A DNA stretch of 64,000 bases from a virus (taxonomy: Duplodnaviria; Caudoviricetes), in IMG/VR virus record IMGVR_UViG_2897842695_000001, positions 1 to 64,000 of that record; one strand, 5' to 3'. The notes beneath the pieces are model-generated. The model made no database searches. It worked only from the letters and a program-made list of their open reading frames with translations, and was not told where the DNA came from. The position numbers and the translations under genes are program-made. Numbering within the stretch: the first letter of the stretch is position 1; the number at the start of each line of letters is the position of its first letter. Positions 1,750 through 58,900 of the stretch are shown here, one piece after another.

Positions 1750-1766
1750 TAAAACCTTTGCACATT

Positions 1767-2877: not shown

Positions 2878-3045
2878 ATAATAAATATAAAACACTAACA
2901 AAGTGTTTAAGAGTGATACGAAACGCGTGGCATTTTTAGTATGCGCTAATGCCAGAAAGAATGTGATTAAGGTGCAATACGGCGGCATCGTATTGCGTTG
3001 CTCACACCTTAGCAGGGCGTTATATCACCATGTAATAACTTGAAA

Positions 3046-12321: not shown

Positions 12322-12569
12322 TCCAAATCCTCTTTCATCTGCTTGAGTGTTAGGCCGTGCTGGTGGCCGTATGCTACTAGCGCATCCAATATCAATTCTT
12401 CCCTACTGGAACACTTCGTAATGATTTGTAATTGCTTGACTAGCTCACGTTGCGTTTCACTTGCTCGGAAATAGATCCGCTTAATGCCAAACTTAGCGAG
12501 CTTTTTAGCGTGCCGTTTGCCCCGTTCGGTACTGCTCAACGGTGGCACTTTTCGTTTTCTATCAGTCAT
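12288..12569 (-). CDS. Putative RHH-type DNA-binding protein
   Basis: STERGKRHAKKLAKFGIKRIYF; operator-containing promoter upstream. Confidence 0.55.
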   Translation of the reverse strand: MTDRKRKVPPLSSTERGKRHAKKLAKFGIKRIYFRASETQRELVKQLQIITKCSSREELILDALVAYGHQHGLTLKQMKEDLECLKILPEQKS

Positions 12570-42800: not shown

Positions 42801-45253
42801 TCGTCCAAGTCCTTGCTATCTAGCCAATCAGATAGGGCCGTATCAACGATCTTGTACGCTAGTTTTTCATCGCCAGCGCCAGTGCCGAAAAGCGGCGCTA
42901 ACTCGAATGCGCTTACTTGGTCAGCTGGTAGCTGTTTATCGTAACCAATCGCACCATGACGAATAGAGTTACCCGCATCAGGGAATTTCTCTTTAGCCTG
43001 TTCCGTATCCAAGAATTGAACTACTTGGTGATCTGCTGGAGTCGTGCCGATGCCATAAGGGCGAGCGCGTAGGCCGTACCAAAATAGGTTAGCCGTGCCA
43101 TCGTCGTTAGTGTCTGGTTGCTCGCCTTGGTCCTGTTCTTCGGTGGCCGCGTCTCTCTCTGCTTTCTCTTTTTCGTAGTCAGCAAGGATTACCGCTTTCA
43201 CCTCATCCCAAGTTGTTAGGCCATCGCCGCCGTCAACCGGTGAACCCTCACTGTATGCAACATTCAACGTTGCATCTTCTTTCGCGTAGACCATGTATTC
43301 ACCGAACACGGTATCTGCATCGCGGTCTGGCGCGTAGAAGTAAACACGCGGCTCGTTATCTTCGCCTTTATCAATGGTCCAGTTCGCTGCAATATTCTTG
43401 CGACCGATAACGTCTAGTAAGATCTGTTTCAGTTGACGGTTTACGTCGTCCTCACTTAGCTCTGGATAGTCGTTTTCGATATTGCTTGCTAGCGTTGATT
43501 TTGTGTCGTCTACACTAAGTTCGCTTAGTTCCATTTGCTCCGCGTCTAGTGTGGCGATTGCATCATTGATGTAATCATTCGCGTAGCCAGTAACTAGCTT
43601 TTTAACATCGCTTACACCAGCGGCTCTGATCGCTGCGCCGTGCTGTTCAACTAGGTCATTAACAACGCCGTCGAAGTCTCCACCAAACGCGTTTAGCTCA
43701 ACCATAGTGCGTTTAGCATTGGCGTTCATTGAAGCCCAAGACTTAGGCACTGGTTCGTTGGCCGTGCCAAGTTTCCAAACGCCATTACGTGACGTTACCG
43801 CTGGTTTGTTGGCTACGTTGTTGTATGCCTTAATCAGCGCTAGAGCATCGTTAACGGCTTGTTGGTTGCCTTGCTTCGCTAGTGTCTCGATACGGCCCGT
43901 TAAGCTCTTAACGAATAGTGAGCGGTCGTAACCTCCCGAACCATTAATATCAATGTCAGCGATAGTGCTAAGGCTTGAGAAAATGCTACGGCCCACTGAA
44001 CCAATAGCTAGAACCTTGTTACCAGCTGCTTTTACTTCTGGATCGCTGAATAGACGGCCTAGCTCATCGTTGCCTTGCGTCTCATCAACACCGGCTTGCT
44101 CTGCTTCTTTAGCGGCCTTTTCTTCCGCATCCTGATTATATTCATTGATGCGTTGGTCCATCGCGTAGTAGATGGCACTCAAAGTCATAGGCTTTGGATT
44201 GGTAGGCTTTTTACGCGGTTGCATGATGGCGCGGTTAACCATGAACAACATCACTTTGTTGTCGTGCTTAACTTCGACGCTGTATTCGTTCTCTAGATCG
44301 TGGTTGTAGTTATCACCGTTAACAGTCAGTGTGTAACCATTGCCTAGATCGAGTTTGTCGCCACGTTTTAACTCGTAATTAGGATCGAGCGTTCTGGTCA
44401 TTGGCGGGTATGTTTCACCCGTTGCTTGTTCTGTTCCAGATTCCGCGCCACCAGCTTCACCAGTGCCGGTTTGCTTAACGCCGAGCTGCTTGCGTAGTTC
44501 TTCTTGAATATCGTTATGGTTATCGATCTGACTTTGAATGCGGCTTTGCTTTTTCTTGGTCGTTTCGATTTGTTCCTCTAGCGAGTCAACCTGATCATTT
44601 AACTGCGCTGTTTCTTCTTCAAGCTGTTGGGCCTTGTCTTGAGTTTCAGCAAGTTCTTTAGCGTCTGCGTCTTTCTTGGATTGAGCCGCTTGGAACTTCT
44701 CACTGTTGTTCTCTAAAAGAGTACCTAGCTTTGTGGTCACTTCTTTTAAAGAAAGGTCCATATTGCCTTTAGGCGCAACAACGTGAGTAACATCGCGAGA
44801 GTTCATCATGAAACGGAAAGCGATCAGCGTATCGTCAGCATTGATTTTTAGCGGATCGTTGTCTGGAGCATGAAAAGCGATAGAAACACTCTGGCCGTCA
44901 GATAGTGGAATTTTCGCGACTTGCACGGCTACCGCGCCAGACTTGCGAGGTTTGCCGATTTCAATTTCACCACAAGTTAGGTTTGGTGTTTGGCGTTCTA
45001 GTTGGTTGCCGAACTTTTTAACACGTTGAGCCAGCATTGACGCTTTCGATTTGAACGCCTCCAGCATCATCTGAGCTACTGGCTCGCACTGAAAAAGCAA
45101 TGTGTTTTCCAAGTCCTCAAGCGTTACCGACTCAAGCAAAAGCTCGCCGTTTTCCGCTTGGTATAGAGCCTCAATTTGCTCTGGTGTTAGAGTTTTCGCC
45201 AAGTGGTCGATTCGGTCCACCACTTTGATTTGTTCTGTGCTGGTAAACATCAT
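39836..45253 (-). CDS. darA: Giant DarA-like polyvalent antirestriction/internal head protein, 1805 aa
   Basis: DarA-type N-domain (LSDGQSVSI...SRDVTHVVAP), coiled coil, DarA_C-like YGLRARPYGIG...RHGAIGY, LPD29-like YNYNNSDSMTDYFDVNFY; follows hdf. Confidence 0.78.
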   Translation of the reverse strand: MMFTSTEQIKVVDRIDHLAKTLTPEQIEALYQAENGELLLESVTLEDLENTLLFQCEPVAQMMLEAFKSKASMLAQRVKKFGNQLERQTPNLTCGEIEIGKPRKSGAVAVQVAKIPLSDGQSVSIAFHAPDNDPLKINADDTLIAFRFMMNSRDVTHVVAPKGNMDLSLKEVTTKLGTLLENNSEKFQAAQSKKDADAKELAETQDKAQQLEEETAQLNDQVDSLEEQIETTKKKQSRIQSQIDNHNDIQEELRKQLGVKQTGTGEAGGAESGTEQATGETYPPMTRTLDPNYELKRGDKLDLGNGYTLTVNGDNYNHDLENEYSVEVKHDNKVMLFMVNRAIMQPRKKPTNPKPMTLSAIYYAMDQRINEYNQDAEEKAAKEAEQAGVDETQGNDELGRLFSDPEVKAAGNKVLAIGSVGRSIFSSLSTIADIDINGSGGYDRSLFVKSLTGRIETLAKQGNQQAVNDALALIKAYNNVANKPAVTSRNGVWKLGTANEPVPKSWASMNANAKRTMVELNAFGGDFDGVVNDLVEQHGAAIRAAGVSDVKKLVTGYANDYINDAIATLDAEQMELSELSVDDTKSTLASNIENDYPELSEDDVNRQLKQILLDVIGRKNIAANWTIDKGEDNEPRVYFYAPDRDADTVFGEYMVYAKEDATLNVAYSEGSPVDGGDGLTTWDEVKAVILADYEKEKAERDAATEEQDQGEQPDTNDDGTANLFWYGLRARPYGIGTTPADHQVVQFLDTEQAKEKFPDAGNSIRHGAIGYDKQLPADQVSAFELAPLFGTGAGDEKLAYKIVDTALSDWLDSKDLDELTQDQLNTLKMGNFKSVFGNVLREQVEYQERKINPTAYKNWNASIDLVTPELIQKVAEDEYHLAEEQGPDANEQQQKTQARMKFIDSATDRLKNIETLPPKERKRAVMLASRSLGGITKSPKRGEGVAGQAARIASQMRIVEELQGETYASLDAQFKNRQQIVAFLKAKNIPYRKLNATRESLLKSILAYRDNFFASLNNMFEMAHTRKDVYDKFENGEAISIEDVEKGFGGTSVYRLGDYQLAKIKGEAVVPAMDEQGEDYRTVERYINDIADGEYPNFKDVSDEDLFAQYFRYAGVTMTDILSTEGSRYLRNDPNLTEQEATAIQNGSMPTWYVAAVEAEAQMRGLPDLHNLTNYSHKGELARASEKRYDYAVSIGKQDGVVIDLFTGRIVERNLDGKEAVTKANELNSEHQKAIVTDLFKMLKDGETLEELADRKVSRSYPPVNQSMFTTVNGLECIYNSLAAEKGTIHGGLQLKDNALEHIAIVKAGGEFDFDSMTEDQNAKLDELGITTQTVITPKGEKLTAVSIKNSRVLLTKAGGEELAKLLGTISAAKADDVDEATKDKTEEEKQLLALDSSEFNSGSIYDAENIGDVKTIASRVRSFLTQMKKAGRLPKDVVISVKKDSYNSLALRLVGLPENVMLWNPEYLQFEIDNPNSTNSRGISFYTEEVNKLIEFVNAYVDQYNYNNSDSMTDYFDVNFYGGRLEVDFDFKRERKVIELESLTETHQQGDQVESKSLDMDYINNTMNDGERAQLEELERFTGFKMALGKQEVTFPAGKVKQVNITDEDDALDKLESLYETLTSQLNEKSALEIKPLENWQSLHAYASPEVNKLTFITSGSIKTNHSNDVANAYGDKYLIARHGSKAVYVYPVIENGQYSLAAYFGGEQVGTFESANELEMLCIHALDLTQELPAPENTEEMEHVEKLKTIRDYKGEVTLELLEQYQDDLEKAYEHFEANGTYPENEPLMEAAFANYAELQSKI

Positions 45254-45873
45254 TTCGCCGCCTCCACTTGTTCTTCCAGTTCTTTCGTTTCTTGTTTTTC
45301 ACGCTCAAGCTCTGCCTCAAGTTCGCTTAGTTTTGTGGATTCAGCATCAAGTTGACTTTGCGCTTTATCGCGAGCTGATTGAGCATTAGTGTGGTTTGAT
45401 TCCGCTGTAGAAAGTGCGGTTTTCGCTTCGTCTAAGCGCTGGGAAATGGATCGAGACGCTGGCTTAGTGCTAGACGTGTCTTTGACGGCTTTAGCAGCTT
45501 TGCGAGCTGCGGCCTTTTCGAATTTGGTTTGGTTGCGGTCCATAAGCTGAGTCATAGCTTTAGCTAGTTCTCGCTCATTGCTGACGCTAGGAATAGGTTG
45601 CTTAGTGTTGTTGAGCGTCATTTGATAAATGTCGCCCTCATCACCGATAAACAAAGTCATGGCTTGGCCGTTTTCAAAGAATAGCTTCGCTTTTTTCACA
45701 ACTTCGCCATCACGGCGCATTTTCTTGTTTGGCGCTTCAATATCAATGACGTTAGAACCGGCATTTTTTAAAGCGGTGATGAGCTTTTTAAGCCCTTTTT
45801 CGGTTACGTTGTCAAAGTCCACCACAACGTAGTTATGGCTTTGGTCTTTGGCAAAACGGCTGGTATTACGCAA
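45250..45873 (-). CDS. hdf: Hdf (DarA homologue)
   Basis: VDFDNVTEKGLKKL resembles recalled P1 Hdf VDFDQVNEKGLKSL; C-terminal coiled coil. Confidence 0.85.
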   Translation of the reverse strand: MRNTSRFAKDQSHNYVVVDFDNVTEKGLKKLITALKNAGSNVIDIEAPNKKMRRDGEVVKKAKLFFENGQAMTLFIGDEGDIYQMTLNNTKQPIPSVSNERELAKAMTQLMDRNQTKFEKAAARKAAKAVKDTSSTKPASRSISQRLDEAKTALSTAESNHTNAQSARDKAQSQLDAESTKLSELEAELEREKQETKELEEQVEAAK

Positions 45874-45939: not shown

Positions 45940-46353
45940 TTAGCTAATTTCAAATTCCTCCGTGTGTCGAGTGGTTGTCGGAAAGATTTTGTATAGCGGA
46001 TTCAAGAAAGAACACGATCGCTCAATCTTAACGTCGAGAATCCAATCCCCAAGTAACTTTTCGCCAGCTTCTTTCTCCAGTGCGGCCTTATCGAAAATAA
46101 GGTACTCACTGTTGTTACCGGCTGTTGAAAAGTCTAGTTTGCGCGTTCTGGTGATAACTGCTGACGGTCGTTTTTTGCTACGTAGCGAATACGTGAGCAT
46201 ACCGGTACGGATCGCTCGCTTTGAACTAAAACTAAGTACAAATCGAATCGCCAAAGGATCATCTATCTGACGTGTATAGTCGATAGTGACCTTGTTTCGT
46301 TTCAGCAAAAAGCGATCAGCAATAGCTAGACCGACAATTGCTAATTCCATCAT
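45940..46353 (-). CDS. lydB: LydB-like protein
   Basis: Between lydA and hdf as in P1; similar size; LNPLYKIFP motif. Confidence 0.65.
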   Translation of the reverse strand: MMELAIVGLAIADRFLLKRNKVTIDYTRQIDDPLAIRFVLSFSSKRAIRTGMLTYSLRSKKRPSAVITRTRKLDFSTAGNNSEYLIFDKAALEKEAGEKLLGDWILDVKIERSCSFLNPLYKIFPTTTRHTEEFEIS

Positions 46354-46673
46354 TTGCTAGTTCCTCCACTATTAAAAAATTTCGCTAAACCTTTGATTGC
46401 CAGCTGCCGTATAGCGGCGAGTGAGTCAGCCCCGTTGTTGGAAGCCACTAGAACTAGAGCGCATGTGTAACCGCGTTCCATTCCGTGACTTTCAAGCACA
46501 TAGGCGACAATTAAGCCAACGACAAGCGCTAGCGTAATTTCAGTGATAAGGTCCATGAAACCACCTTTCAAACGCGCCTCGCGGCGGCCTTGTAGGTAAG
46601 AACCAATACCACTGAGCGCGGATAGAGCTAGTACACTGAATGTAAAGCTCTCACCGAACAAGATAATCGGCAT
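46350..46673 (-). CDS. lydA: LydA-family holin
   Basis: 107 aa, 2-3 TM segments, LSALSGIGSYL; P1 synteny. Confidence 0.78.
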   Translation of the reverse strand: MPIILFGESFTFSVLALSALSGIGSYLQGRREARLKGGFMDLITEITLALVVGLIVAYVLESHGMERGYTCALVLVASNNGADSLAAIRQLAIKGLAKFFNSGGTSK

Positions 46674-46828: not shown

Positions 46829-47863
46829 CTAAACGTTGTCTAAGAGGATTTTGTAACAGGCCAGTTTTGGATAGTGCGGTGCAGCTGGTGGATAGATACC
46901 AAATTTGTCACCGGTATAACCACCGCCACGCGTCATGAGGCTAACTTGCTCTAACTCACCGATCGCGTGAATGGCCGTCACGTAGTCACGTAGTACCTGT
47001 TTCATGGTATCAGTGAATAGCAGCTCGTTAATGTGCTTGTAATCGCTCAAGTTACCGTAGACCGCGTAATCACCTTTACGGGCGTTAAGTGCGTTGCGAA
47101 TCGTACCGTCATAGTCGATCACATAATCATTCACCAGCTGGTTATTAAGGAAGTCACCAGAATTGAGACTACCCATTTTGCCTTTTTTCAGCGCTTTAGC
47201 ATCGTTATACACAAAGTAGCTGGTTTTCACTTTATCCAAGCTCTCGATGTACTTGAAAAGCTCAACGGTAGAATGGCCGAATTGCTTCATCATTTCCGTG
47301 TTCGCGTAAATGTCGAACTGCGTTGAGAATCGTTTGATCCCTGCCGCTTCCAACTCTTTGTAAACGTCCACCAGCGTATGATGATTTGATTCACTCACCA
47401 CCATTTGAACAACATGAATATGCTTTGCGTAGCGCTTCATAAGTTCATGGCCCTTTAGCGAACCTTTCTTACCATTACCAAGGCCATCGTAGCTTAGTAT
47501 CAGCTTGCAATTGTATTCCTCCAATAGCTCGATCCACTCATCATCAAGTAGCAAGCCATTGGTAGTAATGCGCCAAGTATAAGGAATGTAGTATTTCTCT
47601 GAGCGAGCTTTGATGATCTCAAATACTTCGCGGAAATACTCTTTACCGTTCATCAATGGCTCACCACCAAGGAATGAGAAGAACCACTTATTGAACCCTA
47701 GCGACTTGTCACACATTTCAGCGTAGCGCTCTGGAGGCATCATAGTTGCGATTGGTAGATCGCCTTTTTTCATACGCTCCATTTCGCTATCTGTCATGCA
47801 GTAATCACAATCAAGAAAGCACGCGTTATTAACCTTTGGAAGAAACGATATGCGATCGAACAT
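46829..47863 (-). CDS. Radical SAM enzyme (anSME/SPASM-clan core, auxiliary-cluster Cys absent)
   Basis: CFLDCDYC (CxxxCxxC), LGGEPLM, ITTNGLLL, LSYDG. Confidence 0.9.
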   Translation of the reverse strand: MFDRISFLPKVNNACFLDCDYCMTDSEMERMKKGDLPIATMMPPERYAEMCDKSLGFNKWFFSFLGGEPLMNGKEYFREVFEIIKARSEKYYIPYTWRITTNGLLLDDEWIELLEEYNCKLILSYDGLGNGKKGSLKGHELMKRYAKHIHVVQMVVSESNHHTLVDVYKELEAAGIKRFSTQFDIYANTEMMKQFGHSTVELFKYIESLDKVKTSYFVYNDAKALKKGKMGSLNSGDFLNNQLVNDYVIDYDGTIRNALNARKGDYAVYGNLSDYKHINELLFTDTMKQVLRDYVTAIHAIGELEQVSLMTRGGGYTGDKFGIYPPAAPHYPKLACYKILLDNV

Positions 47864-47866
47864 AAC

Positions 47867-48619
47867 TTAGTATCCCTTAATGCCGTAAGTTTCCATCATG
47901 GCTACCATATCGGACGAACGGTCCACTTTAGCCGATGGGCGAGGTAATCCCTTTGCAACGCCAGTCTTGCCTAACCAGTCCAGCGAACAGAAGAAACGCA
48001 CGTTGTTGTCTAGGTCGAAGCCGTAGTGCGTATAAGCGCGATAAACGGCGTTGTAACGCTCTCCAAAGTGCTTGAACGCTTGAGGCTGACTAAAGCCTAA
48101 CTCGATACGGCGTTTTTCCATCACTTGTTGGAGCGTGGCCGTTTGGACCTCGCTTGAGTCAATATTCACCTTACCTAGTGAAAAATCACCGTTAGCGATA
48201 AACAGCATATTGATGAGGTCATAGCGATCATAAAGCTGGTCGTAAAACTCACGCTGGGCCTTACCAAAGCGATAAGGCGTGCAGTTATCAAAGCGGTAGG
48301 TACGAATACCGGTAGCACGTAACACATTGCCGTTATAGACAGACTCTAAGAACGTTAGGTAGCCGCCAACATTGCCGTCAGCATCGAGACAAATGTAATC
48401 AATCGGGCGTACCTCTGGCTCGTATTCCGGATAGTAGAAAGGCTGGCCGATTAGTTCGGAAATATTGTCAGCACGACTAGGCGCAAACAGTAAATTTGGG
48501 AAGTCGTCAGCCAGTGATAGCAATTGCCGGTTCGCCGGTTTTTTACGCCATTCATCGATCTTCGCGCATACCTCATCGAGATAAGGCGAATCACTTGTTA
48601 AGCGAATCAAGTAGCTCAC
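47867..48619 (-). CDS. Hypothetical enzyme-like protein (weak GNAT-like resemblance)
   Basis: 250 aa; YICLDADGNVGGYLTF strand pattern; fold not established. Confidence 0.55.
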   Translation of the reverse strand: MSYLIRLTSDSPYLDEVCAKIDEWRKKPANRQLLSLADDFPNLLFAPSRADNISELIGQPFYYPEYEPEVRPIDYICLDADGNVGGYLTFLESVYNGNVLRATGIRTYRFDNCTPYRFGKAQREFYDQLYDRYDLINMLFIANGDFSLGKVNIDSSEVQTATLQQVMEKRRIELGFSQPQAFKHFGERYNAVYRAYTHYGFDLDNNVRFFCSLDWLGKTGVAKGLPRPSAKVDRSSDMVAMMETYGIKGY

Positions 48620-49247
48620 ATAAACCCCCTACATTTTTGTGATAGCGAGACATAAAGCAGTGACGTTTTGCGTTTGCTTCAATGGCGGCCACGAACTCAT
48701 CATCTAAGTAATCGCGTGCATCACCGATCGCTTCTAGATATTGTTCCCAACCAAAGGCCAGCATGCGGCCAGACTCGCGTTGTTGTTCCCACGGCTTGTA
48801 TAAGCGGGTATTGATCACGGTCGCTTCACTCATTCGGCCAAACGTCTGAGTAATACCGCCTAGATCGTTAAAGTCAGGAATCGAGAAGTTAAAGCGCAAA
48901 TCTTCACCTTGCACTTCGGTTCGGTCCGACTTCGTGTAAATCACAAGATCTTGTTTCGTGCCTTTCTGTTGGCTCATGAAACATGAACCTTTGAATGACT
49001 CGGTTTTATCAAACACCGGCTGAATTGAACCACGGAAAAACAGCGTAGGAGCAAGGCTGCACAAACGCTCTGAGTCTGCTTCAATATCGGCGTAATACTC
49101 ATGCTTCACTAGGCGCGGGATCTCTTTGATTTCAAGATCTGTTAATACGTGAAGCTCATTTTCTGGATGATGCTTTAGAAAGCTCACCGCCATAATGTAG
49201 AACTGGTTAAGCCAGTCCTTATTCAACAATCTTACGTAGACTTTCAC
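48591..49247 (-). CDS. Putative glycosyltransferase (GT-A/GT8-like N-terminus)
   Basis: NKDWLNQFYIMAVSFLKHHPENELHVLTD resembles GT8 N-termini; no clear DxD motif. Confidence 0.45.
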   Translation of the reverse strand: MKVYVRLLNKDWLNQFYIMAVSFLKHHPENELHVLTDLEIKEIPRLVKHEYYADIEADSERLCSLAPTLFFRGSIQPVFDKTESFKGSCFMSQQKGTKQDLVIYTKSDRTEVQGEDLRFNFSIPDFNDLGGITQTFGRMSEATVINTRLYKPWEQQRESGRMLAFGWEQYLEAIGDARDYLDDEFVAAIEANAKRHCFMSRYHKNVGGLCELLDSLNK

Positions 49248-50082
49248 CGGTCACATTCTCCACTGCTTCAACGTATTTCATGATGTTTTTGTCAATGTCC
49301 TCTTTAGAGAAGAACAGGCCGGACAGGTCCGAGCTAAACATGCGGTTAAGCGCTTGCTGTGGTGGCAATACGCCGCCATCAAGCAACAAATCAACGTAGC
49401 TTGCATAACATGATTGGTAGTCGCTCCAGTCTTTGTGATTGGTAATGTCTACCACTGACACACCATTAGCGATCGCAATAAAGTTCAGCTCGCTGGTGTT
49501 CGGGATGTAAGCCTTTTTCAGTGATGGAATTAGCGAGCCACCAGCGACACGGGCCGCAAATACATGGTTTGGATATTCCGCTTCAAGTTCGGCCATGTGG
49601 CGCTCATGTGTGACTGGATGAGGCTTGACCATGCCGCCCTCTTGAAATACGCATTCATTCACTTTCAAGAAGTCGATAGCAATACGCATACAGTTAGAAC
49701 CGGCCAAGAACGCTACTACTTCCGGATGTTTCATTGAGCGGCGTAGCTTGTATTTGTCTGGAGTGACAGATGAGCGGATCTGTTCGCAGTAATCAATCAG
49801 GTTTGCTGGCTTGTGCTGCATTGCTGCGCGTAGAACGGTCATGTGAGTGTCGTAGTGCATGTAGCGAATCGACACGCCACCAAGCGCACCACAAAACTCA
49901 TGGATCGCGAATGAACCCTCGCCGTTGTTGTGGCAAATATCGAAGTCAACGTTATAGCCCATACCACGTAACTTGATTAAGGCATACTCGGCCAGCTGTC
50001 GGCTGGTGTTACCTTGGCTAGTTGGTAGGACCGTACCAGTACGTGCAAACGCTGAACGGTTATCAACAATCTCTGATTTCAT
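49219..50082 (-). CDS. Putative GT-B glycosyltransferase (KpsC/KpsS or sialyltransferase-like C-domain)
   Basis: VKPHP motif and NTSELNFIAIANGVSV, like the KxHP...nS..g.eA...G..V pattern. Confidence 0.5.
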   Translation of the reverse strand: MKSEIVDNRSAFARTGTVLPTSQGNTSRQLAEYALIKLRGMGYNVDFDICHNNGEGSFAIHEFCGALGGVSIRYMHYDTHMTVLRAAMQHKPANLIDYCEQIRSSVTPDKYKLRRSMKHPEVVAFLAGSNCMRIAIDFLKVNECVFQEGGMVKPHPVTHERHMAELEAEYPNHVFAARVAGGSLIPSLKKAYIPNTSELNFIAIANGVSVVDITNHKDWSDYQSCYASYVDLLLDGGVLPPQQALNRMFSSDLSGLFFSKEDIDKNIMKYVEAVENVTGESLRKIVE

Positions 50083-50084
50083 GA

Positions 50085-50411
50085 TTACGCCTCGACTGGA
50101 GCAACACGGTTTAGATGGCCGTCAACACGCATCTTGATAGAGTCGATAATTGATGTTTTGACTTGCTCTAGCGCCTGTTCGTATTCAGCGACGATGGCAT
50201 CTTTATCGTTATCTAACTGAGCGATGTGCTCAACGATTACTTCTGCGTTTTGTTTTGCGTGCTCAATGGTCGCCTCAACGATCGTTTTTAGCTCTGCATT
50301 AGAAGCAAGAACGGATTTCACCGCCTCATTGGCGTTATTCGCGATGGTCGTTACTTCTTTAAGTTTTTCTTCAAGCTCGCGAACGCGTAAGTCTAATTGT
50401 GTTTCACTCAT
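50085..50411 (-). CDS. Acidic coiled-coil protein, 108 aa
   Basis: Heptad pattern; AGGA SD. Confidence 0.7.
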   Translation of the reverse strand: MSETQLDLRVRELEEKLKEVTTIANNANEAVKSVLASNAELKTIVEATIEHAKQNAEVIVEHIAQLDNDKDAIVAEYEQALEQVKTSIIDSIKMRVDGHLNRVAPVEA

Positions 50412-50432
50412 CTTTAATTTTCCTAGTGCATT

Positions 50433-50460
50433 AAAAAAGGCCGTTCGGAATGAACAGCCT
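50433..50460 (-). terminator. Internal terminator/attenuator between repeat-protein genes and enzyme genes
   Basis: AGGCTGTTC-ATTCC-GAACGGCCT-TTTTT on the minus strand; contains operator core CATTCCGAAC. Confidence 0.6.
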
Positions 50461-50496
50461 ATAATTTACATCATTTTTGAACGATTGGCATTATGC

Positions 50497-50652
50497 CTAC
50501 GAGCGAGCTGATTGAGTAACCCACGATGTAGTTTTCGCCGTCATGTAGCTAGTCGTTTTCGCCGTTACATGGCCGTCAGAACCAAAACCCATTGTTGTAC
50601 GCGAGGTCATTGTTACTGTAGTTCGGCTTGTAGTGTGTACTTGGTTTTGCAT
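50497..50652 (-). CDS. Unannotated 51-aa Thr-rich repeat peptide
   Basis: Hand translation MQNQVHTTSRTTVTMTSRTTMGFGSDGHVTAKTTSYMTAKTTSWVTQSARS; TAAGGA SD; same tetrapeptide grammar as the upstream gene. Confidence 0.75.
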   Translation of the reverse strand: MQNQVHTTSRTTVTMTSRTTMGFGSDGHVTAKTTSYMTAKTTSWVTQSARS

Positions 50653-50669
50653 GATTTTTCCTTAGTTGG

Positions 50670-51809
50670 TTATACGACAACAAGTGTCGTTTTACTGGTT
50701 GTGTAAGTTGTCGTGAAGCTGGTACTAATCGTTGTCGATTTGCTGAAATTCTTCTTAGTCGTTTTCGAAGTTGTGACCGTAGTATTTCGTGAACCAACCC
50801 AAGACGTTGTTTTATCTGTTGCCTTAGACGTTGCAGCTGAATAGCTCCAAGTTGTTGTCCAAGTCGTTGTCTTGCCAGCTGTGGTCCAGCTAGTTGATAC
50901 GCCGCCAGTGCTCCAGCTAGTCGTCTTAGTGGTGCTTTGTGAAGCTTTCCAAGAAGTTGTGTAGCTAGTGCCAACCGCTGTACCAAACGAGGTTGATTTC
51001 GTTGTGGCCTTGCTGGTTGATTTACTGTTTGGCACGTTCGTAGACCAAGTTGTTGTCTTAGCCGTAGTTTTGGAAGTACCAAAGCTGGTGTTAACCGCTG
51101 CCGTCCAAGCCGTTGTATAGCTTGTAGTACGAGAAGTGGTGTAACCCTTACTCGCGTATGGACCGGTCGCCCAAGTCGTCGTCTTGGTGGTCGTTTTGGA
51201 GTACGAATAAGTTGTGCTTCGTGTGGTGTTCCAAGAAGTTGTCTTGTTCGTGCTCTTAGACGTGTTACGAGGCGAGGTCCAACTTGTAGTCCAAGTCGTT
51301 GTGCCAGCTGTAGAACGGCTGGTTGATTTCGTCGTAGATTTCGTCGTGGTCTTGCTGGCCGTCCAAGTCGTAGTAACCGCTGTACCTTTTGACGTTGTAC
51401 GCGTGGTTGTTTTCGACGTAGTACCGCTGGTTAATTGGCTGGTGCTCTTTGACGCGGTTTTAGTGGTGTTCCAGCTTGTCGTTCCCGCCGTTGTCTTACT
51501 GCATGTTACAGACGTTGCAAAAGTCGATACCCAAGACGTACTAGCATCACCGACCCAAGAGGTAGTGATACTGGTTGTTTTTGAGGTTGTTTTGCTGGTG
51601 GACCAATACGTTGTTTTCAGACTCAAACGACACGCGCCGTAGAAGTCCGACAACTTGATTGCACCCGTTGTAGGTACTTTGGCATTCTCCGGAATATCCG
51701 GAATGATACCGCCACCACGATAGAGCTGAGACAAAGCAAGTGCGCCCGTCTGGCCGTAGTAGTCGCGGATCTGCAATAGCGACAATGCGCCGCTACTTGG
51801 TAATGGCAT
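50670..51809 (-). CDS. Thr/Ser/Lys/Trp tetrapeptide-repeat protein with phage fibre-tip-type N-terminal domain
   Basis: MPLPSSGALSL...LSQLYRGG...PTTGAIKLSDFYGA leader (~60 aa), then ~320 aa of T-[S/T]-X-[T/S] repeats. Confidence 0.85.
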   Translation of the reverse strand: MPLPSSGALSLLQIRDYYGQTGALALSQLYRGGGIIPDIPENAKVPTTGAIKLSDFYGACRLSLKTTYWSTSKTTSKTTSITTSWVGDASTSWVSTFATSVTCSKTTAGTTSWNTTKTASKSTSQLTSGTTSKTTTRTTSKGTAVTTTWTASKTTTKSTTKSTSRSTAGTTTWTTSWTSPRNTSKSTNKTTSWNTTRSTTYSYSKTTTKTTTWATGPYASKGYTTSRTTSYTTAWTAAVNTSFGTSKTTAKTTTWSTNVPNSKSTSKATTKSTSFGTAVGTSYTTSWKASQSTTKTTSWSTGGVSTSWTTAGKTTTWTTTWSYSAATSKATDKTTSWVGSRNTTVTTSKTTKKNFSKSTTISTSFTTTYTTSKTTLVVV

Positions 51810-51811
51810 TA

Positions 51812-52381
51812 CTACCCCCTAAGCGTGCTGATAGCCGCTTGAACCATATCGAAAACCGCATAAGGCCGATGAACAATAGCGCTCTCGCCTATACGGTTAG
51901 CCACAAATAGGATCGCTCCAGCCTCAAAGCCTAGTTCTTGGCCTAGCCGCAATAGCTGGGAGGTTTCCATATCTTCTACAGGGAAGCCGTCAACCGGCTT
52001 GCTCTTGGTGTAAAGCAAATCTGTTGTGACACACCCTGTTAACGGTAAGTTGGGAAATAGAAAGGACGGGTAAGTGTGTGAATCTTCACGGCTGCATGCA
52101 CGGGACACGGCCACCAGCGAACCAAGCAATGATTCATCTTGTGTTCCTGCCGTACCGATGCGAATAGCTCGCTCAACTGGATAAATCCCTTTGAGTTGTC
52201 GCACGGCATAGTCAATTGATGGTCGGCCCATTCCACAAGCACAAACGCCAATGTCGGAAGCAAACCAGACGCTAAAAAACGGCTGGTAAATATCCGGCTC
52301 ACTTGGCGCGTTCGCATCAATGATTTTAGCGATCGCTTGCGCCCTATTAGGGCAACCAGTGAAGATCCACAACTTAACCAT
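51812..52381 (-). CDS. Nucleoside phosphorylase-I fold enzyme (DeoD/Udp-like)
   Basis: TGCPNRA, GMGRPS, IRIGTAG, TDLLY and EDMET correspond to PGDPxRA, GMGxPS, IRxG, DxFY and EME motifs. Confidence 0.8.
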   Translation of the reverse strand: MVKLWIFTGCPNRAQAIAKIIDANAPSEPDIYQPFFSVWFASDIGVCACGMGRPSIDYAVRQLKGIYPVERAIRIGTAGTQDESLLGSLVAVSRACSREDSHTYPSFLFPNLPLTGCVTTDLLYTKSKPVDGFPVEDMETSQLLRLGQELGFEAGAILFVANRIGESAIVHRPYAVFDMVQAAISTLRG

Positions 52382-54159
52382 TAAGCACGGGCCTGTAGCA
52401 GTTCTTTTACGGCTGCCTCAACAAAGCTCAATCGGTCCTCAAGACGGCTAATTGTGTTCTGTTGCTGCTTAATACCCTCGATGAGTAGAGCAACCATATT
52501 GCCGTATGCGACTGATAGCTTGCCGTCTGGTCCTGCTTTCACCACATTAGGTAGCACTGCCGCGACTTCCTGCGCGATTACGCCCGTATGCCAACTATCA
52601 TCTTGCTTTAGCTGGTAGTCGTAACCGTTCAGCTGCATGATCTTGTTGATTGCGTCCGTTAGTGGCTGGAAGTTCTTTTTGATTCGCTTATCAGATAGAC
52701 CTTGCAAGTCACCAGACAGCGTTAAGTTGCCGGTTTCAAAGTCAAAGACAAAGCGATCCGCTGAACCCTTGCGCATGTTTAGCTTGAAGCCAGACAAAGC
52801 ATCGAGAAAAGCAGACGTACCATTGAAGTACAAACCTAGATCGTTGTCGTTACCAAGCAACAATTTCACGTTGTCGTTTAGTGCCGTGCTGCCAGTGAAT
52901 CGACCACCAGCTTTAGGCATCTTGGTATCAGCTACGGCTACAGCATCTTTGACCGCTTTAGGCGTGGCCGCTTTTTCTTCGCTGGTCGAGTCAATCGCAC
53001 TTGATAGCTGAACAACACCGGCGCGTTGAAGCGTAGCCGCCAAAACAGAAAGCGTTAGTGCGCTGCCAAGCTGGCCGCCACCAGTCAATGCGCCGCTGGT
53101 ATTGATGAGCGCGGTTTTCTCCAGTTTCTTAGCCAGTTCGCCGGTGATTGAATCTAGAATGCTTTCATTGGCCTCAAGCTCTTTGATTAGAGCCTCTAGG
53201 TTTTTCAGCATTTCCGGATCAGTACCGCCTAAAAGCGTCTGAATGGAGTTATCCGTGTACTTGGCCGCGTCCACACCTACTTGTAGGGCAAATGCTTTCA
53301 ACGCTTTTAGCGCTGCTGCTGCTGCCGCCAATTCGGTACTGTCAGAGTCCAATTCACTTGTTAGGCGAACACCACCTAGCTTAGTGGTCGTTGCTTGGGC
53401 CAAACCAAGCATCAAACCGTCAGCCAATGCACCGCCACCAGTCAAACCCTCGGACACGCCGACTTGAATTTTACCTAGTGATTCGCGAGCGCCTAGCTCA
53501 ATACCACGCCATAACTGAGGCAATAGAACCGGCTTAGGGGATTTACTTTTGTTATCAATATCTGCGTCTGTAGCTGCCGAATCGACACGCATATATTGTT
53601 TATGTGGATCATGAGCCGCAATGTGTCGCGCTAGGTCCAAACCACCATCCATGCGCTGATTAAAGCTCATGTATGATTCATCTAGGACTAGCGTTCCAGC
53701 TGGCACGTCAAAGGAAGCAAGAATTACATGGTGCGCTTGCAGCTTGCCCTCTTGAACGATCTTCAATGAAGCCGCATCGTAAGCTGATCGAATATCAATT
53801 TGCTTCGTGATAAGGCCGTGTTGGTAGATCGCCTCGATAACTGCATAGCTACGGCCAATTGGCACGGTCAACACAACATCATGCTGTTGGCGAACTGTCA
53901 GCAAGTAGCCGTCACGTTCAACCATTGCAACGCCGTATTGTTGGCCGGACGTAACGTTAACGGTCATGGTGTTACCAATCACCGCCACATTAAAGCCACG
54001 GTACACACCAGCTTCTACAATGCCGCAAAGCTTACGGTTCAAACTTTCCGAGCTGTTTGGCTCTAGGTATTGCGTATCTGCAATAAGAGGCAAACTCTCG
54101 ATCTCGTTAATGGTAGGCGGTATTAAAACCGCCTCCTCATGTCGTCGTTGCCCACTCAT
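52381..54159 (-). CDS. Tail fibre protein (P1 S-type N-terminus, fibre repeats, C-terminal S74 intramolecular chaperone)
   Basis: QYLEP..SESLNRKL N-domain, GVVQLSS...AATPKAVK repeat, SDKRIK...GVIAQEV...VAYG. Confidence 0.88.
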   Translation of the reverse strand: MSGQRRHEEAVLIPPTINEIESLPLIADTQYLEPNSSESLNRKLCGIVEAGVYRGFNVAVIGNTMTVNVTSGQQYGVAMVERDGYLLTVRQQHDVVLTVPIGRSYAVIEAIYQHGLITKQIDIRSAYDAASLKIVQEGKLQAHHVILASFDVPAGTLVLDESYMSFNQRMDGGLDLARHIAAHDPHKQYMRVDSAATDADIDNKSKSPKPVLLPQLWRGIELGARESLGKIQVGVSEGLTGGGALADGLMLGLAQATTTKLGGVRLTSELDSDSTELAAAAAALKALKAFALQVGVDAAKYTDNSIQTLLGGTDPEMLKNLEALIKELEANESILDSITGELAKKLEKTALINTSGALTGGGQLGSALTLSVLAATLQRAGVVQLSSAIDSTSEEKAATPKAVKDAVAVADTKMPKAGGRFTGSTALNDNVKLLLGNDNDLGLYFNGTSAFLDALSGFKLNMRKGSADRFVFDFETGNLTLSGDLQGLSDKRIKKNFQPLTDAINKIMQLNGYDYQLKQDDSWHTGVIAQEVAAVLPNVVKAGPDGKLSVAYGNMVALLIEGIKQQQNTISRLEDRLSFVEAAVKELLQARA

Positions 54160-54700: not shown

Positions 54701-55996
54701 TTAGACGTAACGATCTAAACGTACTGAATCGACGGGCGATTCATCCAAACGAACACTTGTGACACCAGCTGGTTTGCGTAGGCCGACCTCTTTAGGCTCA
54801 AAACGGGCCTGTATTTCGATCGAGTTATCTGCGCTTTCAATTGCGTCAGATACACGCATTTTAGTGGCTACTTGTGCGTAACTATTTTCTATTTGTGGGC
54901 GTTTTTCAGATAGGACAACACGCCAAAGCTTCTCGTAGATAAAGAAGTTTTTATCGAGCCTCACCGTGTCGGAAGAAACACAATCGAGGCGCGTTCTGGC
55001 TTGTTTTTGGGGAATAGGTTGAGGTTCATCTACAGTAGTAAATTTACCAGCTTCTACCGCCAGCGTATATTTACTTTGTTCCTCTTTTTCGGCCAAATTG
55101 ACCGTTTGACGGGTTTTATTAAACCCATTTTCTGAGGATTCTAGCGCATTTGTTAGGAATGTGCGCCATACCTTTTCATAGACAAAGAAATTTTTATCGA
55201 CGCGGAATGTGTCGCTCGCGTAAGCATCTAGACGTGTTCGGGCCTGTCGCGTTGGGATTGCTCTTGGCTTGTCCTCATCAAACCAATCTAGCGTGATTTT
55301 CTGGATGAACTTAGGCACATCATCGAGATCTTCAATACGGATCGTAGTGTCAACTTGTGAGATACCCTGCACTACCCATTCAATCACATCCCAAAGCTCG
55401 AATTTCAGATAGTAGCTAGTACCCTGCATAACGATACGCAAAGGCACTAGCGGGTAAACAACGCGGCGGAGCTTTTCTTCAAACTCACGCAAAGATTCTT
55501 CGTCGTTAACGCGAACCTCGTTGAGTGGCACTTGGATCACGCCTCGGCTGGTCATGAACCAGTCTTTGTTTTCCTGCATATCCAAATCGTCAGCTGTCAC
55601 CAGTACAGTGCCATAAGGATATTTAACTAGGTCCGTAGGCGCGTATAACGGCTGCCAAGTCACCTCCATACCCGCAAACTCACGGCGTAACGTTGCCTCT
55701 AGTGGGTAAACGGTTTTCTTTAGGTGGATCTGGTCTTGGCGCTGCATAACTGTCATTGGTAGGTCAGTTTCAGCCACATCACCGAACGCGAAAAAGTCGC
55801 CTAGTTCCCTAACCTCAACTTGCAGATCTTGAGGCTGCATATCAAAGAGAGAGTTACGGGTTTTAATCCGCTCTAGGTAGTTCTCGACGTGTGATTCCAA
55901 AAGCGAGCCAAGGGCATGAGCAAAGTCAGTCCATGCCTCGGTATTTTGCTTGGTTCGGGTAAGCTGGCTTTTCAGCCAGCTTTGCAAGTTACTCAT
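54701..55996 (-). CDS. Baseplate protein (P1 gp16-like) with triplicated C-terminal motif
   Basis: SWLKSQLT, WQPLYAP and FMTSRG motifs; three RLD..S/VD..R.D units. Confidence 0.7.
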   Translation of the reverse strand: MSNLQSWLKSQLTRTKQNTEAWTDFAHALGSLLESHVENYLERIKTRNSLFDMQPQDLQVEVRELGDFFAFGDVAETDLPMTVMQRQDQIHLKKTVYPLEATLRREFAGMEVTWQPLYAPTDLVKYPYGTVLVTADDLDMQENKDWFMTSRGVIQVPLNEVRVNDEESLREFEEKLRRVVYPLVPLRIVMQGTSYYLKFELWDVIEWVVQGISQVDTTIRIEDLDDVPKFIQKITLDWFDEDKPRAIPTRQARTRLDAYASDTFRVDKNFFVYEKVWRTFLTNALESSENGFNKTRQTVNLAEKEEQSKYTLAVEAGKFTTVDEPQPIPQKQARTRLDCVSSDTVRLDKNFFIYEKLWRVVLSEKRPQIENSYAQVATKMRVSDAIESADNSIEIQARFEPKEVGLRKPAGVTSVRLDESPVDSVRLDRYV

Positions 55997-58900
55997 AGGC
56001 GGTCCTCTAATTTGCTTAGGCGTTCAGCCAACTGCTCGATAAGTTGAGCCTGTTGGTCAATGATCACTTGCTGTTCTTGAATCGCTTTGATTGAGCATGC
56101 GTTCAAACCAAAGTGAGAAACAGATAAGTAACCGTCCTCGCCCTCGCTAACCAGTGTTGGGATCTGCTCTTGTAGCTCTTGAGCAATAACGCCGATTTCC
56201 TCAACGCCATGTTTCACATAGCTGTAAATGCCAAGCTTCAATAGCTTGTCTAATACGCCCTCTGGTAGCTGCTCGATGTTCGATTTTAAGCGGCGGTCCG
56301 AAGTACCTTTAAAGTCACCAGCGATAAATACACCGGTAGACGTACCCGCATCAATTTGCGAGAAGTTGTGACGGTGGCTCGCCGGTGCGTATGGGTGCGA
56401 GTGGTTCGCTTTGTCATAAGCGGTTTTCACTGCTTTTGCAGACGCGGCCAGTGTTTCACTGGTTGAGTTAACCGCGTTGGTTAGCTGGACAGTACCGGTC
56501 TGTGTTGTGCTCGCTGCTCGATGTACCCATTTACTTGCTGCCAAGTCATAAGCGATCTTTACTGCTTTTGGCGTGGCCGCTAGTGCTTCACTTGTCGAGT
56601 TCGTTGCGCTTGATAGCTGGACCGCACCGGCGGCGGTTAGGTCTGCCACTCGATAGGTCCACTTGCCGTTTGCTACGCCTAGTGCTGAAACAGCTTTGTC
56701 GTAAGCGGTTTTTGCTGCCTTGGAACTTGCATAAACCGTAGAGCTTGCCGAGTTAACCACGTCCGAAATATTGCGGTTGTTTGGACTAAATACTCGCTGG
56801 CCCTTTTCGCGCAATTCAATCAGGAAGTCGAAAACACCAGTCGTCGCGACCGCGATCTGTTTAAGGCTAACTTCTGTTCCCGCTTTCACGTTATCTGCAA
56901 GTGCGATCGTCAGTGTGGCCGTTACTGAGTCAGTGCTACCGTCAATACGGTAAGACGAACCAGCAACTTGAGGAATGCCGCCTTTATGGTTCATTACAAC
57001 GCTTGCTTGGCCGTGGCCGTCATTGTCGGTTAGCGTTGCTTTTGCGCTGCGCATTAGGTATCGACCGTCACCAGTGGCTTGAGTCATTTTGCTTGCTGCT
57101 AAGTCGTATGCAGACTTAACCGCTTTAGGCGTAGCCGCGTATGCTTCGCTAGTAGAGTTGATCGCACTGGACAACTGAACCGCACCAGTTTGGGCCGTTG
57201 TTGCTACTCGATACGTCCACTTACCCGCCGCCAAGTCATAAGCGAGTTTCACTGCTTTAGGCGTGGCCGCTTGTGCTTCGCTGGTGGAGTTAATCGCGCT
57301 TGATAATTGGACCGCACCGGCTTTCGCTGTTGTCGCTACCGTATAGGCCCACTTGCTTGCTGCTAGGTCATAGGCGGTTTTTACTGCTTTAGGCGTGGCC
57401 GCTAGAACTTCACTGGTTGAGTTAACCGCACTGGATAGTTGGACCGCACCTTTTTGAGCTGTTGATGCGTCATTGATACCTAGTTGAACATTACCGGTAA
57501 GATCGCCGCCGCCAGTTAGTGCACCGCTGACAACAATCTGGATCGCCTTGTTTGCTTTCTTGGCGAGTTCTGCGTTAATGGCCGCAATGTCGCTGTCATT
57601 ATCCACCAGCGCATCACCAAGCTCTTTAAGCGTGTTTAGGTGTTCAGCTGGAGCGTCACCAAGTAACTGAGAAATGAGCTGGTCAGTGTAGGCTTTGGCT
57701 GCTTGTTCTGCCGAAACTGCACGATCATGCGCTGTCTTAGTTGCTTTGGCCGTTGAGCCTAGCGTTTCGCTTGTTGAGGTAACGGAACTAGAAAGCTGTA
57801 CCGCACCTTTTTGAGCTGTCGTCGCGTCCTTGATACCGATCGTTAGTTCATCACCAATCTGACCGCCACCGGTGATCGCTCCGGTAGTATTTAGCAAGGT
57901 TGCATTGTTGGCTTTTGTCGGTAGCGTTTTGTTGATTTGCGCGATATCACCGTCATTGCTGACTACCGCATCACTAACTTCTTTGAGGCTAGCATGCGCA
58001 CCGGCTTCGCCTTTTAGCTTGGCTATTTCTTGGTTTGTGTAATTGGTCGCGTTGGTGTTAGCGGTACTAATGGCCTGTTCTTTGGCTGTCTTGACACCTT
58101 TAGGCGTTGCGGCTTGAGTTTCGCTGGTGGATGTAGTCGAGCTAGATAGTTGCGATACACCTTTGCTTGATGTGGAAGCATCAGGCACGGACGCTTCAAG
58201 CACATAAGGCGATTGCTCCGAGCCGTCACCAGCTGCGGCCCACTTCAATGAAATGTTTGGGTTTGAAGCAAAGCGAACGAACTTACCTTGTTCCACTTCG
58301 TGACGGGCGTTGTCCTCATCCATTAGCGTAAAGCTGCGGATATAACGATCGTCGTGTAGGTGCGTTGTTGGTGATTTGCTATCGAGCGCGTCTTGTAGGC
58401 CGTCGATGTAACCGATCGTGTGACGGTGTGAGTCTTTCTTGACCGTTACGTTTAAGGTCACGTCTTGCGAGCCATCGAGACTAACCGAACCGGTCACGTT
58501 ACCCGCTAGTGCAAGGTTAAAAGCCGTTTCAATCTTCTTGGCCGCAACTGCTGTAGCGCCTTTATCTAGACACGTATCAATGACGTGGTTTACCGCTCTT
58601 TGAACCGCTGCGGTAGTCGCTGCTAGTTCGTCTGAGGCGGTCGCATAATTACCGGATAGAGTAACAACACCTTGGCGCTCAAGAGTCGCTAACTGAATGC
58701 CTAAAGTAATACCATTTAGTGCGTTACCGGTGGCCTGTAATGGTGCAGACGTGGTGATTGTTACGGCCTTTAGTGCGTTGTCTAACGCGGTCCATAACTT
58801 AGGTAACTCTAGGTACTTCTCTAGGTTTGATTTGTTGTTGATTTCTTCTGTTGTGGCCGCTTCTTCGCGTAACAGATATTGTTTGTGTGGATCTGGAGTG

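Follow-up and report, generated by a model that had tools for sequence, protein, structure and literature searches.

We propose that an eight-gene cassette in a P1-like phage, probably of Vibrio, encodes a Thr/Ser-rich repeat protein together with enzyme-like proteins that would modify it. The cassette occupies positions 46829-52381 of the window, by which we mean the whole stretch analysed, the first 64,000 nucleotides of IMG/VR virus record IMGVR_UViG_2897842695_000001 (95,651 bases, rated 97% complete). The best reading of the comparative data is that it is a local form of a module widespread among phages, in which an accessory Thr/Ser-rich protein, made with the tail fibres, would be modified post-translationally. 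The sequence comparisons and predicted folds also incline us, by a modest degree, to the more specific view that this protein is a virion component that carries O-glycosylation and receives a further, radical modification.

The eight open reading frames (ORFs) are all on the minus strand and are separated by tiny gaps or overlap. The first is translationally coupled to the tail-fibre gene and begins within its end: the fibre stop codon, TAA, overlaps the ATG of the gene for a 189-amino-acid (aa) protein in a TAATG, which reads GCTTAATGG. A sequence-only reading of the window had described this packing, the overlap with the fibre gene, and a terminator after the 51-aa ORF; an ORF check placed all the genes as described, and the terminator is a hairpin followed by a T run at 50460-50438. 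Listed in the direction of transcription, the cassette and its two boundary genes are as follows.

52381..54159, minus strand: S-like tail fibre, 592 aa, the upstream boundary (Phage_fiber_2 1.1e-19 and Peptidase_S74 2.7e-18 in Pfam; many tail-fibre PHROGs)
51812..52381, minus strand: nucleoside-phosphorylase-fold protein, 189 aa (PF01048)
50670..51809, minus strand: Thr/Ser-rich repeat protein, 379 aa (composition; period of 4; phrog_30374 9.8e-33)
50497..50652, minus strand: 51-aa ORF of uncertain status, with the X-T-T-S grammar and no N-domain
50438..50460, minus strand: terminator-like hairpin, a 9-bp stem with 5 GC pairs, then TTTTTT
50085..50411, minus strand: acidic coiled-coil protein, 108 aa, with the motif (I/V)xEHIAQLDxDKD
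49219..50082, minus strand: β-Kdo-transferase-like protein, 287 aa (predicted fold, modified GT-B)
48591..49247, minus strand: GT8-like protein of GT-A fold, 218 aa (predicted fold)
47867..48619, minus strand: 250-aa protein with a weak GNAT-like hint
46829..47863, minus strand: radical S-adenosylmethionine (radical-SAM) enzyme, 344 aa (PF04055 3.2e-12; phrog_27668 4.7e-81)
46350..46673, minus strand: LydA-type holin, the downstream boundary (phrog_1527 2.4e-24; PF16083)

The repeat protein consists of an N-terminal domain (N-domain; about residues 1-62, window 51624-51809), about 80 X-T-T-S units and an LVVV end. X is K, W, R, Y or F and, less often, G, V, I or Q. Thr and Ser make up 50% of the residues (122 Thr and 66 Ser, beside 33 Lys and 17 Trp), and the four-residue period is strict, with an autocorrelation of about 0.4 at every multiple of 4. 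In the DNA, Tandem Repeats Finder detects next to nothing, and all four Thr codons are in even use; the period is therefore kept at the level of the protein. A weak NCBIfam match is to "serine-rich protein". The repeat proteins of the vibriophage group end in hydrophobic tails (LVVV, LVVV, QVAV, TWAV, YVAV and FVPV), and the 51-aa ORF has no such tail. This small ORF starts 17 nt past the repeat gene, at TAAGGA-N6-ATG. We considered whether it is a recent duplicate of the large repeat gene and rejected the idea, the likeness being at the protein level only, with no DNA similarity.

The evidence that carries our proposal is a constant pairing of the 287-aa family with a gene for a protein rich in Thr and Ser. 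Further loci (denoted here by L numbers) were retrieved by a degenerate DNA pattern of fixed gap, G-[ST]-N, 22 residues, KPHP[LIV]T, which yielded 62 viral contigs, all of them with true members of the 287-aa family. An upstream same-strand ORF of at least 33% T+S lies within 1.5 kb in 46 of the 62, and in two more, where two genes are inserted before it, the distance is 1.66 kb. The remaining 14 contigs are without enough upstream sequence: 12 have less than 0.5 kb, and L139 and L158 belong to a lineage that needs about 2.5 kb. Thus, the 287-aa homologue adjoins a Thr/Ser-rich gene in 48 of the 48 new loci with enough flank and in about 15 others, and the association of the GT-like gene with a Thr-rich gene, which the sequence-only reading had proposed to look for, is found wherever the flank suffices. 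The other loci examined were 11 IMG/VR loci and the contigs L018-L022 and L126-L129. An ORF of 33-65% T+S is directly upstream of the 287-aa homologue in L003, phage KVP40, Vibrio phage D479, L007-L016, L020, L021 and L126-L129. The core of the repeat protein measures 320 aa here and up to 1,400 aa in relatives.

Gene order is kept in several of these loci. L003, a P1-like element from Vibrio metschnikovii data, has a fibre gene, the repeat protein, the coiled coil, proteins of 286, 217 and 250 aa, the radical-SAM enzyme, LydA, LydB and DarA; it is without the phosphorylase gene and the 51-aa ORF, and a hairpin lies in the same intergenic region, between the repeat gene and the enzyme genes. 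In KVP40, the repeat protein (0254), the coiled coil (0255), the 287-like protein (0256) and the 218-like protein (0257) follow each other as they do in the window. KVP40.0254-0257 (Schizotequatrovirus), annotated as "hypothetical" or "cell wall mannoprotein", are thus true homologues of four core genes in the same order. D479 (OZ195776.1) has the same block and, in addition, an orthologue of the window radical-SAM enzyme (34% identity). In both vibriophages, unlike the window, the block is not beside fibre genes. These neighbourhoods support the view that the repeat-protein gene works as a single unit with the enzyme-like genes. Judged by gene content, the module extends beyond P1-like phages, since KVP40-like T4-type vibriophages and many uncultured phages carry its core; the suggestion that it is special to P1-like phages does not survive. 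We found no functional study of the KVP40.0254-0257 block in the literature and no published study of the module itself under the topics of KVP40, mannoprotein, threonine-rich fibre and virion glycosylation, nor did a virion proteome come to light.

In the loci named next, the module is set among tail or fibre genes. It follows an S74 fibre in the window, L003, L022 and L130, and in L007 it follows a tape-measure block, one that is succeeded by radical-SAM and methyltransferase genes. Tail assembly chaperone genes are directly downstream in L008, L126, L127 and L129. In L021, the module lies beside T4 gp13/14/15 (the neck region), with GT2, GT9-like, GT29-like and methyltransferase genes. Two marine phage contigs encode small proteins with GT29 (sialyltransferase) motifs beside the 287-aa homologue (L016, 9458-10099, minus strand; L021, 7545-8336), which would fit ulosonic-acid chemistry. 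The block 0254-0257 of KVP40 is followed by QueC-like and NAPRT-like genes and two other radical-SAM genes. The full set of such genes in the two vibriophages (KVP40 0258-0262; D479 0260-0263 and 0270) comprises QueC-like (PP-loop), NAPRT-like, HAD-like, 2-oxoglutarate-oxygenase-like and two Cys-rich radical-SAM genes; this suggests that the KVP40-like core may be part of a larger pathway. A DNA-modification role, raised by the QueC-like link, was considered and dropped, as nothing in the window supports it. In D479 (L001), the repeat-protein ORF, 181 codons with the N-domain and TTSW repeats (11887-12429, plus strand), is unannotated; GenBank instead calls small opposite-strand ORFs, VPHD479_0267 and 0268, over it.

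The 287-aa protein had been labelled GT-B-like, and the fold search refines this to a modified GT-B fold like that of the β-transferases of Kdo (3-deoxy-D-manno-octulosonate). Sequence searches gave no Pfam, NCBIfam or PDB match, nor any match in a single-protein locus search, and comparisons of the 287-, 218- and 250-aa proteins with the PDB, singly and as profiles, gave nothing usable. The AlphaFold2 model, built from an 11-sequence alignment, has a pLDDT of 86. Its best Foldseek matches are the retaining β-Kdo glycosyltransferases (GTs) KpsC, WbbB and KrkA (E 2.7e-5, probability 1.0). With VIA-align, the 15 best rows are all β-Kdo GTs, with Z from 9.7 to 8.0 over 205-224 residues, and generic GT-B C-terminal-domain matches come behind, at Z of about 7. 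A profile search of 1.84 billion representatives collected 346 family members (clusters at 50% identity). Residues that do not vary among 153 representatives, whose identity is about 20%, are D48, D109-K110-Y111, G128, N130, K153-x-H155-P156 and E198. An HP motif is the one feature common to the β-Kdo GTs and the CMP-sialic-acid GTs, where it is linked with binding of cytidine monophosphate (CMP) (PMC10148158). In the 287-aa family, the HP motif follows the second strand of the C-terminal half, and the invariant G128 and N130 are in the loop after the first strand of that half. The 287-aa protein therefore has the β-Kdo GT scaffold and probably binds a CMP-type nucleotide. The likeness to KpsC (GT107), WbbB (GT99) and KrkA resides in the same unusual modified GT-B fold, which is otherwise peculiar to this group, and the HP motif; the genomic partner differs, being a Thr/Ser-rich protein for the 287-aa family and a glycolipid pathway for those enzymes.

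Some members of the family depart from the usual gene. One is fused to a methyltransferase domain. L019 (a contig of GCA_051652205.1) has two family genes, at 1633-3027 and 4228-4989; one of the two has a 197-aa N-terminal extension of no known fold, and a radical-SAM orthologue overlaps the start of the first. The IMG/VR ORF for KVP40.0256 is 284 aa long, against 253 aa as annotated.

The 218-aa protein had been labelled GT8-like, and the predicted fold agrees. All 50 VIA rows listed are GT8, GT24 or related retaining GT-A enzymes (Z from 10.0 to 7.3 over about 165 of the 218 residues), and among the best is GlyE, which glycosylates the serine-rich-repeat adhesin of pneumococcus. The best Foldseek matches are LgtC, glycogenin and 3tzt (E 2e-3 to 1e-2, with a probability of 0.98 at E 2e-3), and the ESM Atlas feature matches include GT8 clusters. 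PF01501 does not match the 218-aa protein, nor does any other Pfam family; in the same slot of L022, an analogous 329-aa protein has a weak PF01501 match.

The N-domain and the coiled-coil protein suggest how an enzyme and its substrate might be brought together. The N-domain has the consensus MPLPSSGxLSL..IRDYY...LSQLYRGGGI.PDIPEN..VPT.GAI.LSDFYGA. It recurs in 40 GenBank phage records, mostly of KVP40-like vibriophages, and is 61% identical to that of KVP40.0254 and its relatives; its hidden Markov model (HMM) matches the repeat protein in eight related loci and also matches the Xanthomonas jumbo phage RTH11. In RTH11, it heads two small Ig-like proteins. The L005 copy begins a Trp-rich protein of 160 aa that has no T/S repeats, and the L019 copy is internal, flanked by a discoidin-like domain and a short TTSW tail. 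Because it is found in these contexts, the N-domain appears to behave like a portable docking or oligomerisation module and not like the leader of a ribosomally synthesised and post-translationally modified peptide (RiPP). The two RTH11 genes (L023, 5998-6471 and 7044-7502) directly follow the gene of a tail fibre that exceeds 2,000 aa, and the first begins about 40 nt upstream of its annotated start. Homologues of the 108-aa coiled coil are present in KVP40 (0255), D479 (0266), L003, L020, L022 and L130. L005 has the coiled coil as an N-terminal fusion to the 287-aa homologue (376 aa), and the family member P0008, of 377 aa, is likewise long. The coiled-coil HMM finds a match in seven of seven loci with both the N-domain and the 287-aa homologue and in none of the 13 loci without the N-domain. 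From this distribution, the coiled-coil protein is probably an adaptor of the 287-aa protein, linking the enzyme to the N-domain.

The nearest structural relatives of the 287-aa protein build capsule and O-antigen glycans, and temperate phages, as a P1-like phage is expected to be, often encode O-antigen-modifying transferases. It is quite unlikely, in our judgement, that the cassette enzymes modify Kdo-type glycans of the host envelope (lipopolysaccharide or capsule), for lysogenic conversion or superinfection exclusion, with the repeat protein being an unrelated fibre accessory. The kinship and the expected lifestyle would suit such a role. However, the pairing with a Thr/Ser-rich gene is universal and includes lytic T4-like phages such as KVP40, the cassette genes are transcribed with the late tail-fibre genes, the presence of the coiled-coil adaptor follows that of the N-domain on the repeat protein, and no membrane or export component is encoded in the cassette.

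The label of radical-SAM enzyme for the 344-aa protein was upheld: PF04055 scores 47.4 bits against a cut-off of 29.5, the cluster motif is C15-x3-C19-x2-C22, and a GGEP is present. The best NCBIfam families, anSME, PapB, DynA and YhhB (1e-15 to 1e-13), all score far below their cut-offs, the top score being 56 bits for anSME against a cut-off of 349; the best PDB match is also anSME, over the N-terminal half only. The nearest relatives of the enzyme thus appear to be the radical-SAM maturases that modify proteins or peptides. It resembles the SPASM/twitch maturases (anSME, PapB, DynA and the YhhB-type cyclophane synthases), which are its best matches, also in lying beside a repetitive candidate substrate, and differs from them in having no auxiliary Fe-S Cys residues, only sub-cut-off scores and no RiPP accessory genes. 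Its orthologues in L003 (74%), D479 (0271, 34%) and L019 (25%) have 4-7 Cys in total, D479_0271 and that of L019 having four. Their neighbours include an N-domain/TTSW protein as well as a 287-aa homologue, and this is so in three unrelated contexts, namely the P1-like phages, the T4-like D479 and the contig L019, from a metagenome-assembled genome. An orthologue search by alignment in viral and genome contigs returned only generic radical-SAM cores and is uninformative on co-occurrence; neither a 287-aa homologue nor a real Thr/Ser-rich gene is present in any of its 101 loci. That Trp in the repeats predicts the radical-SAM gene, as six loci with the gene and five without it had suggested, is refuted by the 62 further loci, in which Trp-rich repeats (3-7% W) occur, still with no radical-SAM gene.

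Repetitive substrate genes, a stem-loop and tailoring enzymes had been likened to the architecture of a RiPP cluster. In a true pathway of this kind, the repeat protein, and perhaps the 51-aa ORF, would be the precursor, with the N-domain as leader, the radical-SAM enzyme would cross-link or epimerise the core, and the product would be released, not built into the virion. The family matches to RiPP maturases, the layout of a conserved N-domain and a variable repetitive core, and the terminator between "substrate" and enzyme genes would fit. Nevertheless, we consider it very unlikely. Searches with Pfam, PHROG and NCBIfam reveal no protease, exporter or transporter, or RiPP recognition element-like domain in the cassette; the "leader" stands on the enzyme-free Ig-like proteins of RTH11 and has an internal position in L019; most loci of the family are without the radical-SAM gene; and the core measures 320 aa, and as much as 1,400 aa in relatives. 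The analogy with RiPP architecture is therefore weak. The 51-aa ORF, which had been seen as a substrate peptide, is not conserved: it is absent in L003, and its slot in L130 holds a full 244-aa second repeat protein with an N-domain of its own. By this comparison, it is lineage-specific.

Two enzyme-like proteins of the cassette remain to be described. The nucleoside phosphorylase fold assigned to the 189-aa protein is confirmed by PF01048 (39.7 bits against a cut-off of 25.1) and by the best PDB matches, uridine and purine nucleoside phosphorylases (1.7e-8). The motifs GxPxR, GMGxPS, RxGTAG and EDMETS align with those of phosphorylases, so that the phosphate and ribose motifs are kept. The protein is short, 189 aa versus about 235-250 aa, and about 30 base-binding residues from the middle are missing between two aligned blocks. 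It has no homologue in GenBank phages; in the relative L130, a gene of 58% identity occupies the same slot. The 250-aa protein has no Pfam, PHROG, NCBIfam or PDB match, and its Atlas model is of low confidence (pLDDT 0.40), with a TM of about 0.4 to GNAT and LPG-synthase-C clusters. L003 encodes its sole clear homologue (41% identity); proteins in the same slot of L020 and D479 match it weakly (hhalign probability 16%).

These elements can be joined in a mechanism, as follows. The repeat protein would attach to the virion, or oligomerise, through its N-domain, and the coiled-coil protein would bring the β-Kdo-transferase-like enzyme to it. Through the HP motif, the 287-aa enzyme would bind a CMP-activated ulosonic acid of the host (Kdo or a nonulosonic acid) and O-glycosylate Thr and Ser of the repeat protein. 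O-glycosylation is the simplest mechanism for the universal pair of a Thr/Ser-rich and a β-Kdo-GT-like protein, and a CMP-activated ulosonic acid is suggested as donor by the HP motif and the fold. No CMP-sugar synthetase is encoded by the phage, so the donor would have to come from the host; since every Gram-negative host supplies CMP-Kdo, it is the leading donor, although to name it is a guess. The GT8-like protein would extend the modification or assist, and the 250-aa protein would likewise extend or edit it. In the Vibrio-phage branch, the Cys-poor radical-SAM enzyme would further modify the protein or its glycan, and the phosphorylase-fold protein may remove a nucleoside by-product, such as the 5'-deoxyadenosine of the radical-SAM reaction, a role that we only infer. 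The terminator after the repeat genes would lower the expression of the enzymes relative to that of the substrate. What results would be a hydrophilic appendage bearing chemical decoration, with an effect on adsorption, host range or shielding; the phage itself has lost the inversion switch of P1.

Several results weigh against this mechanism. A QXXXD motif, whose aspartate is the nucleophile, is the other hallmark of retaining β-Kdo GTs (PMC10148158); it is not conserved among the 153 representatives of the 287-aa family, which have F-L-x-G-S/T-N there. Pfam Capsule_synth (PF05159) matches neither the 287-aa protein nor anything in the whole record, the controls being positive. Compared with KpsC, WbbB and KrkA, the 287-aa protein is shorter, without QXXXD and without a Capsule_synth match, and it is not a member of GT99 or GT107. 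The 218-aa model is of moderate confidence (AlphaFold2 pLDDT 67, four usable homologues), and the DxD is not conserved, being replaced by APT in the window and by SPT, SPT, VDN and CRN in the other four of five family members. With both QXXXD and DxD missing, either of the two transferase-like proteins could be non-catalytic or do other chemistry. The radical-SAM enzyme has no Cys residues for auxiliary clusters (six Cys in total, those outside the SAM cluster being C51, C119 and C336), and its gene is absent in 62 of the 62 further loci of the 287-aa family. RTH11 has the N-domain with no enzyme gene nearby, and the phosphorylase-fold gene, absent in L003, appears to be optional in the cassette. 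Of the modified appendage that the sequence-only reading had imagined, glycosylated and/or radical-SAM-modified, the single functional unit, the folds and the kinship with peptide maturases stand, the catalytic motifs are missing, and a place at the fibre tip finds no support; the proposed co-occurrence with the radical-SAM gene holds beside N-domain/TTSW proteins in the three contexts named and fails in the 62 further loci.

The missing catalytic hallmarks keep alive a reading that we judge unlikely, in which the transferase-like proteins have degenerated to non-catalytic folds and serve as dedicated chaperones, or in the assembly, of a hard-to-fold Thr/Ser-rich fibre, the repeat protein being unmodified or only lightly modified. 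GtfB serves GtfA in this way in the serine-rich-repeat systems, as assembly proteins serve tail fibres. The 287-aa gene often has a fibre-like gene on one side and a tail assembly chaperone gene on the other, and the fusion with the coiled coil suggests protein-protein scaffolding. Against this, the residues that are invariant in the 153 representatives are polar and active-site-like and include the nucleotide-binding HP motif, and some loci add bona fide GT2, GT9 or GT29-like genes, methyltransferase genes or a methyltransferase fusion; the extra GT and methyltransferase genes fit an enzymatic pathway. Envelope modification and a true RiPP pathway are, in our view, less likely than the chaperone-only reading.

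We return to the position of the cassette in the phage genome. In P1, the order on the record map is 16-R-S-U-(U', Sv')-cin-lydC-lydA-lydB-hdf-darA. In the window, it is R-like, fibre, cassette, LydA, LydB, DarA_N and DarA (1805 aa); the cassette thus takes the U/U'/Sv'/cin interval, as had been noticed at first sight. The claim that none of U, U', Sv' and Cin is recognisable is also borne out, since the whole 95,651-base record matches no resolvase or invertase and no U-type fibre assembly protein (Caudo_TAP); neither a Cin invertase nor alternative Sv/U genes, by which a P1 C-segment/Cin system is known, were found in it. The cassette unit replaces the inversion system of P1, as the sequence-only reading had it. 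The C-terminus of the S-like fibre is a Peptidase_S74 intramolecular chaperone domain. Both window fibre genes (55993-59415 and 52381-54159) end in such a domain, which is consistent with the absence of a U-type assembly protein; the larger, of 1140 aa, has seven Phage_fiber_2 repeats. The window DarA (39836-45253) is 1805 aa long, against 639 aa in P1 by the coordinates of its record, and a separate 207-aa DarA_N protein (45250-45873) occupies the hdf position ahead of it. The cassette has no megablast match among GenBank phages, and PADLOC finds no defence-system family in it, only a generic similarity of the radical-SAM enzyme to viperins.

The glycosylation of serine-rich-repeat (SRR) adhesins in Gram-positive bacteria, by GtfA/GtfB, the GT8-type GlyE and GlyD, and the O-acetyltransferase Asp2 (PMC7661464, PMC7948813), resembles the module in that a long repeat protein rich in hydroxy amino acids is encoded beside several dedicated transferases, including one of GT8 fold, and perhaps in an acyltransferase-like partner, if the low-confidence model of the 250-aa protein is right. 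In contrast to the SRR systems, the window lacks GtfA/GtfB (GT4) as well as an accessory Sec system, and the setting is a phage; its repeats are Thr-dominated, with a four-residue period and regular Lys and Trp, and it adds the β-Kdo-GT-like and radical-SAM enzymes. Mycobacteriophage GTs are reportedly thought to act on the phages' own structural proteins, according to Freeman et al. 2023 (Cell Host Microbe 31:1216); the substrates are said to be extensions at the C-termini of capsid and tail-tube proteins, the enzymes to be of ordinary GT families and the hosts to be actinobacterial. The module differs in having a dedicated repeat protein as substrate, another enzyme family and Gram-negative hosts. 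By function, its nearest counterparts are the SRR systems and mycobacteriophage glycosylation, and by structure KpsC and WbbB; it belongs to none of these. Dedicated glycosylation of a hydroxy-rich repeat protein is already known; the module has an unnamed enzyme family and a radical-SAM step, and the constant pairing suggests a route, not described before, to the chemical decoration of a virion appendage.

A wider proposal, which we put forward as a tentative possibility only, is that in many phages of Gram-negative and marine hosts a family derived from β-Kdo or sialyl-type transferases coats dedicated Thr/Ser-rich fibre proteins with ulosonic acids of the host, as a phage-wide system of virion O-glycosylation, with a new kind of radical modification added to the same protein by a Cys-poor radical-SAM enzyme in vibriophages. 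If the glycosylation reading holds, phages of Gram-negative hosts would routinely glycosylate a dedicated virion appendage with an enzyme family that no database names, and the small and structurally odd β-Kdo-transferase group would extend to protein substrates. It would bear on the tuning of phage adsorption, on adherence to mucus or capsule and on antibody recognition, and conserved "hypothetical" genes of KVP40-like and marine phages would gain a function. The pairing rule, a Thr/Ser-rich gene adjoining a gene of the 287-aa family, is a testable handle for annotation. In P1-like phages, the cassette would represent an alternative to the classic Cin-mediated switch of host range.

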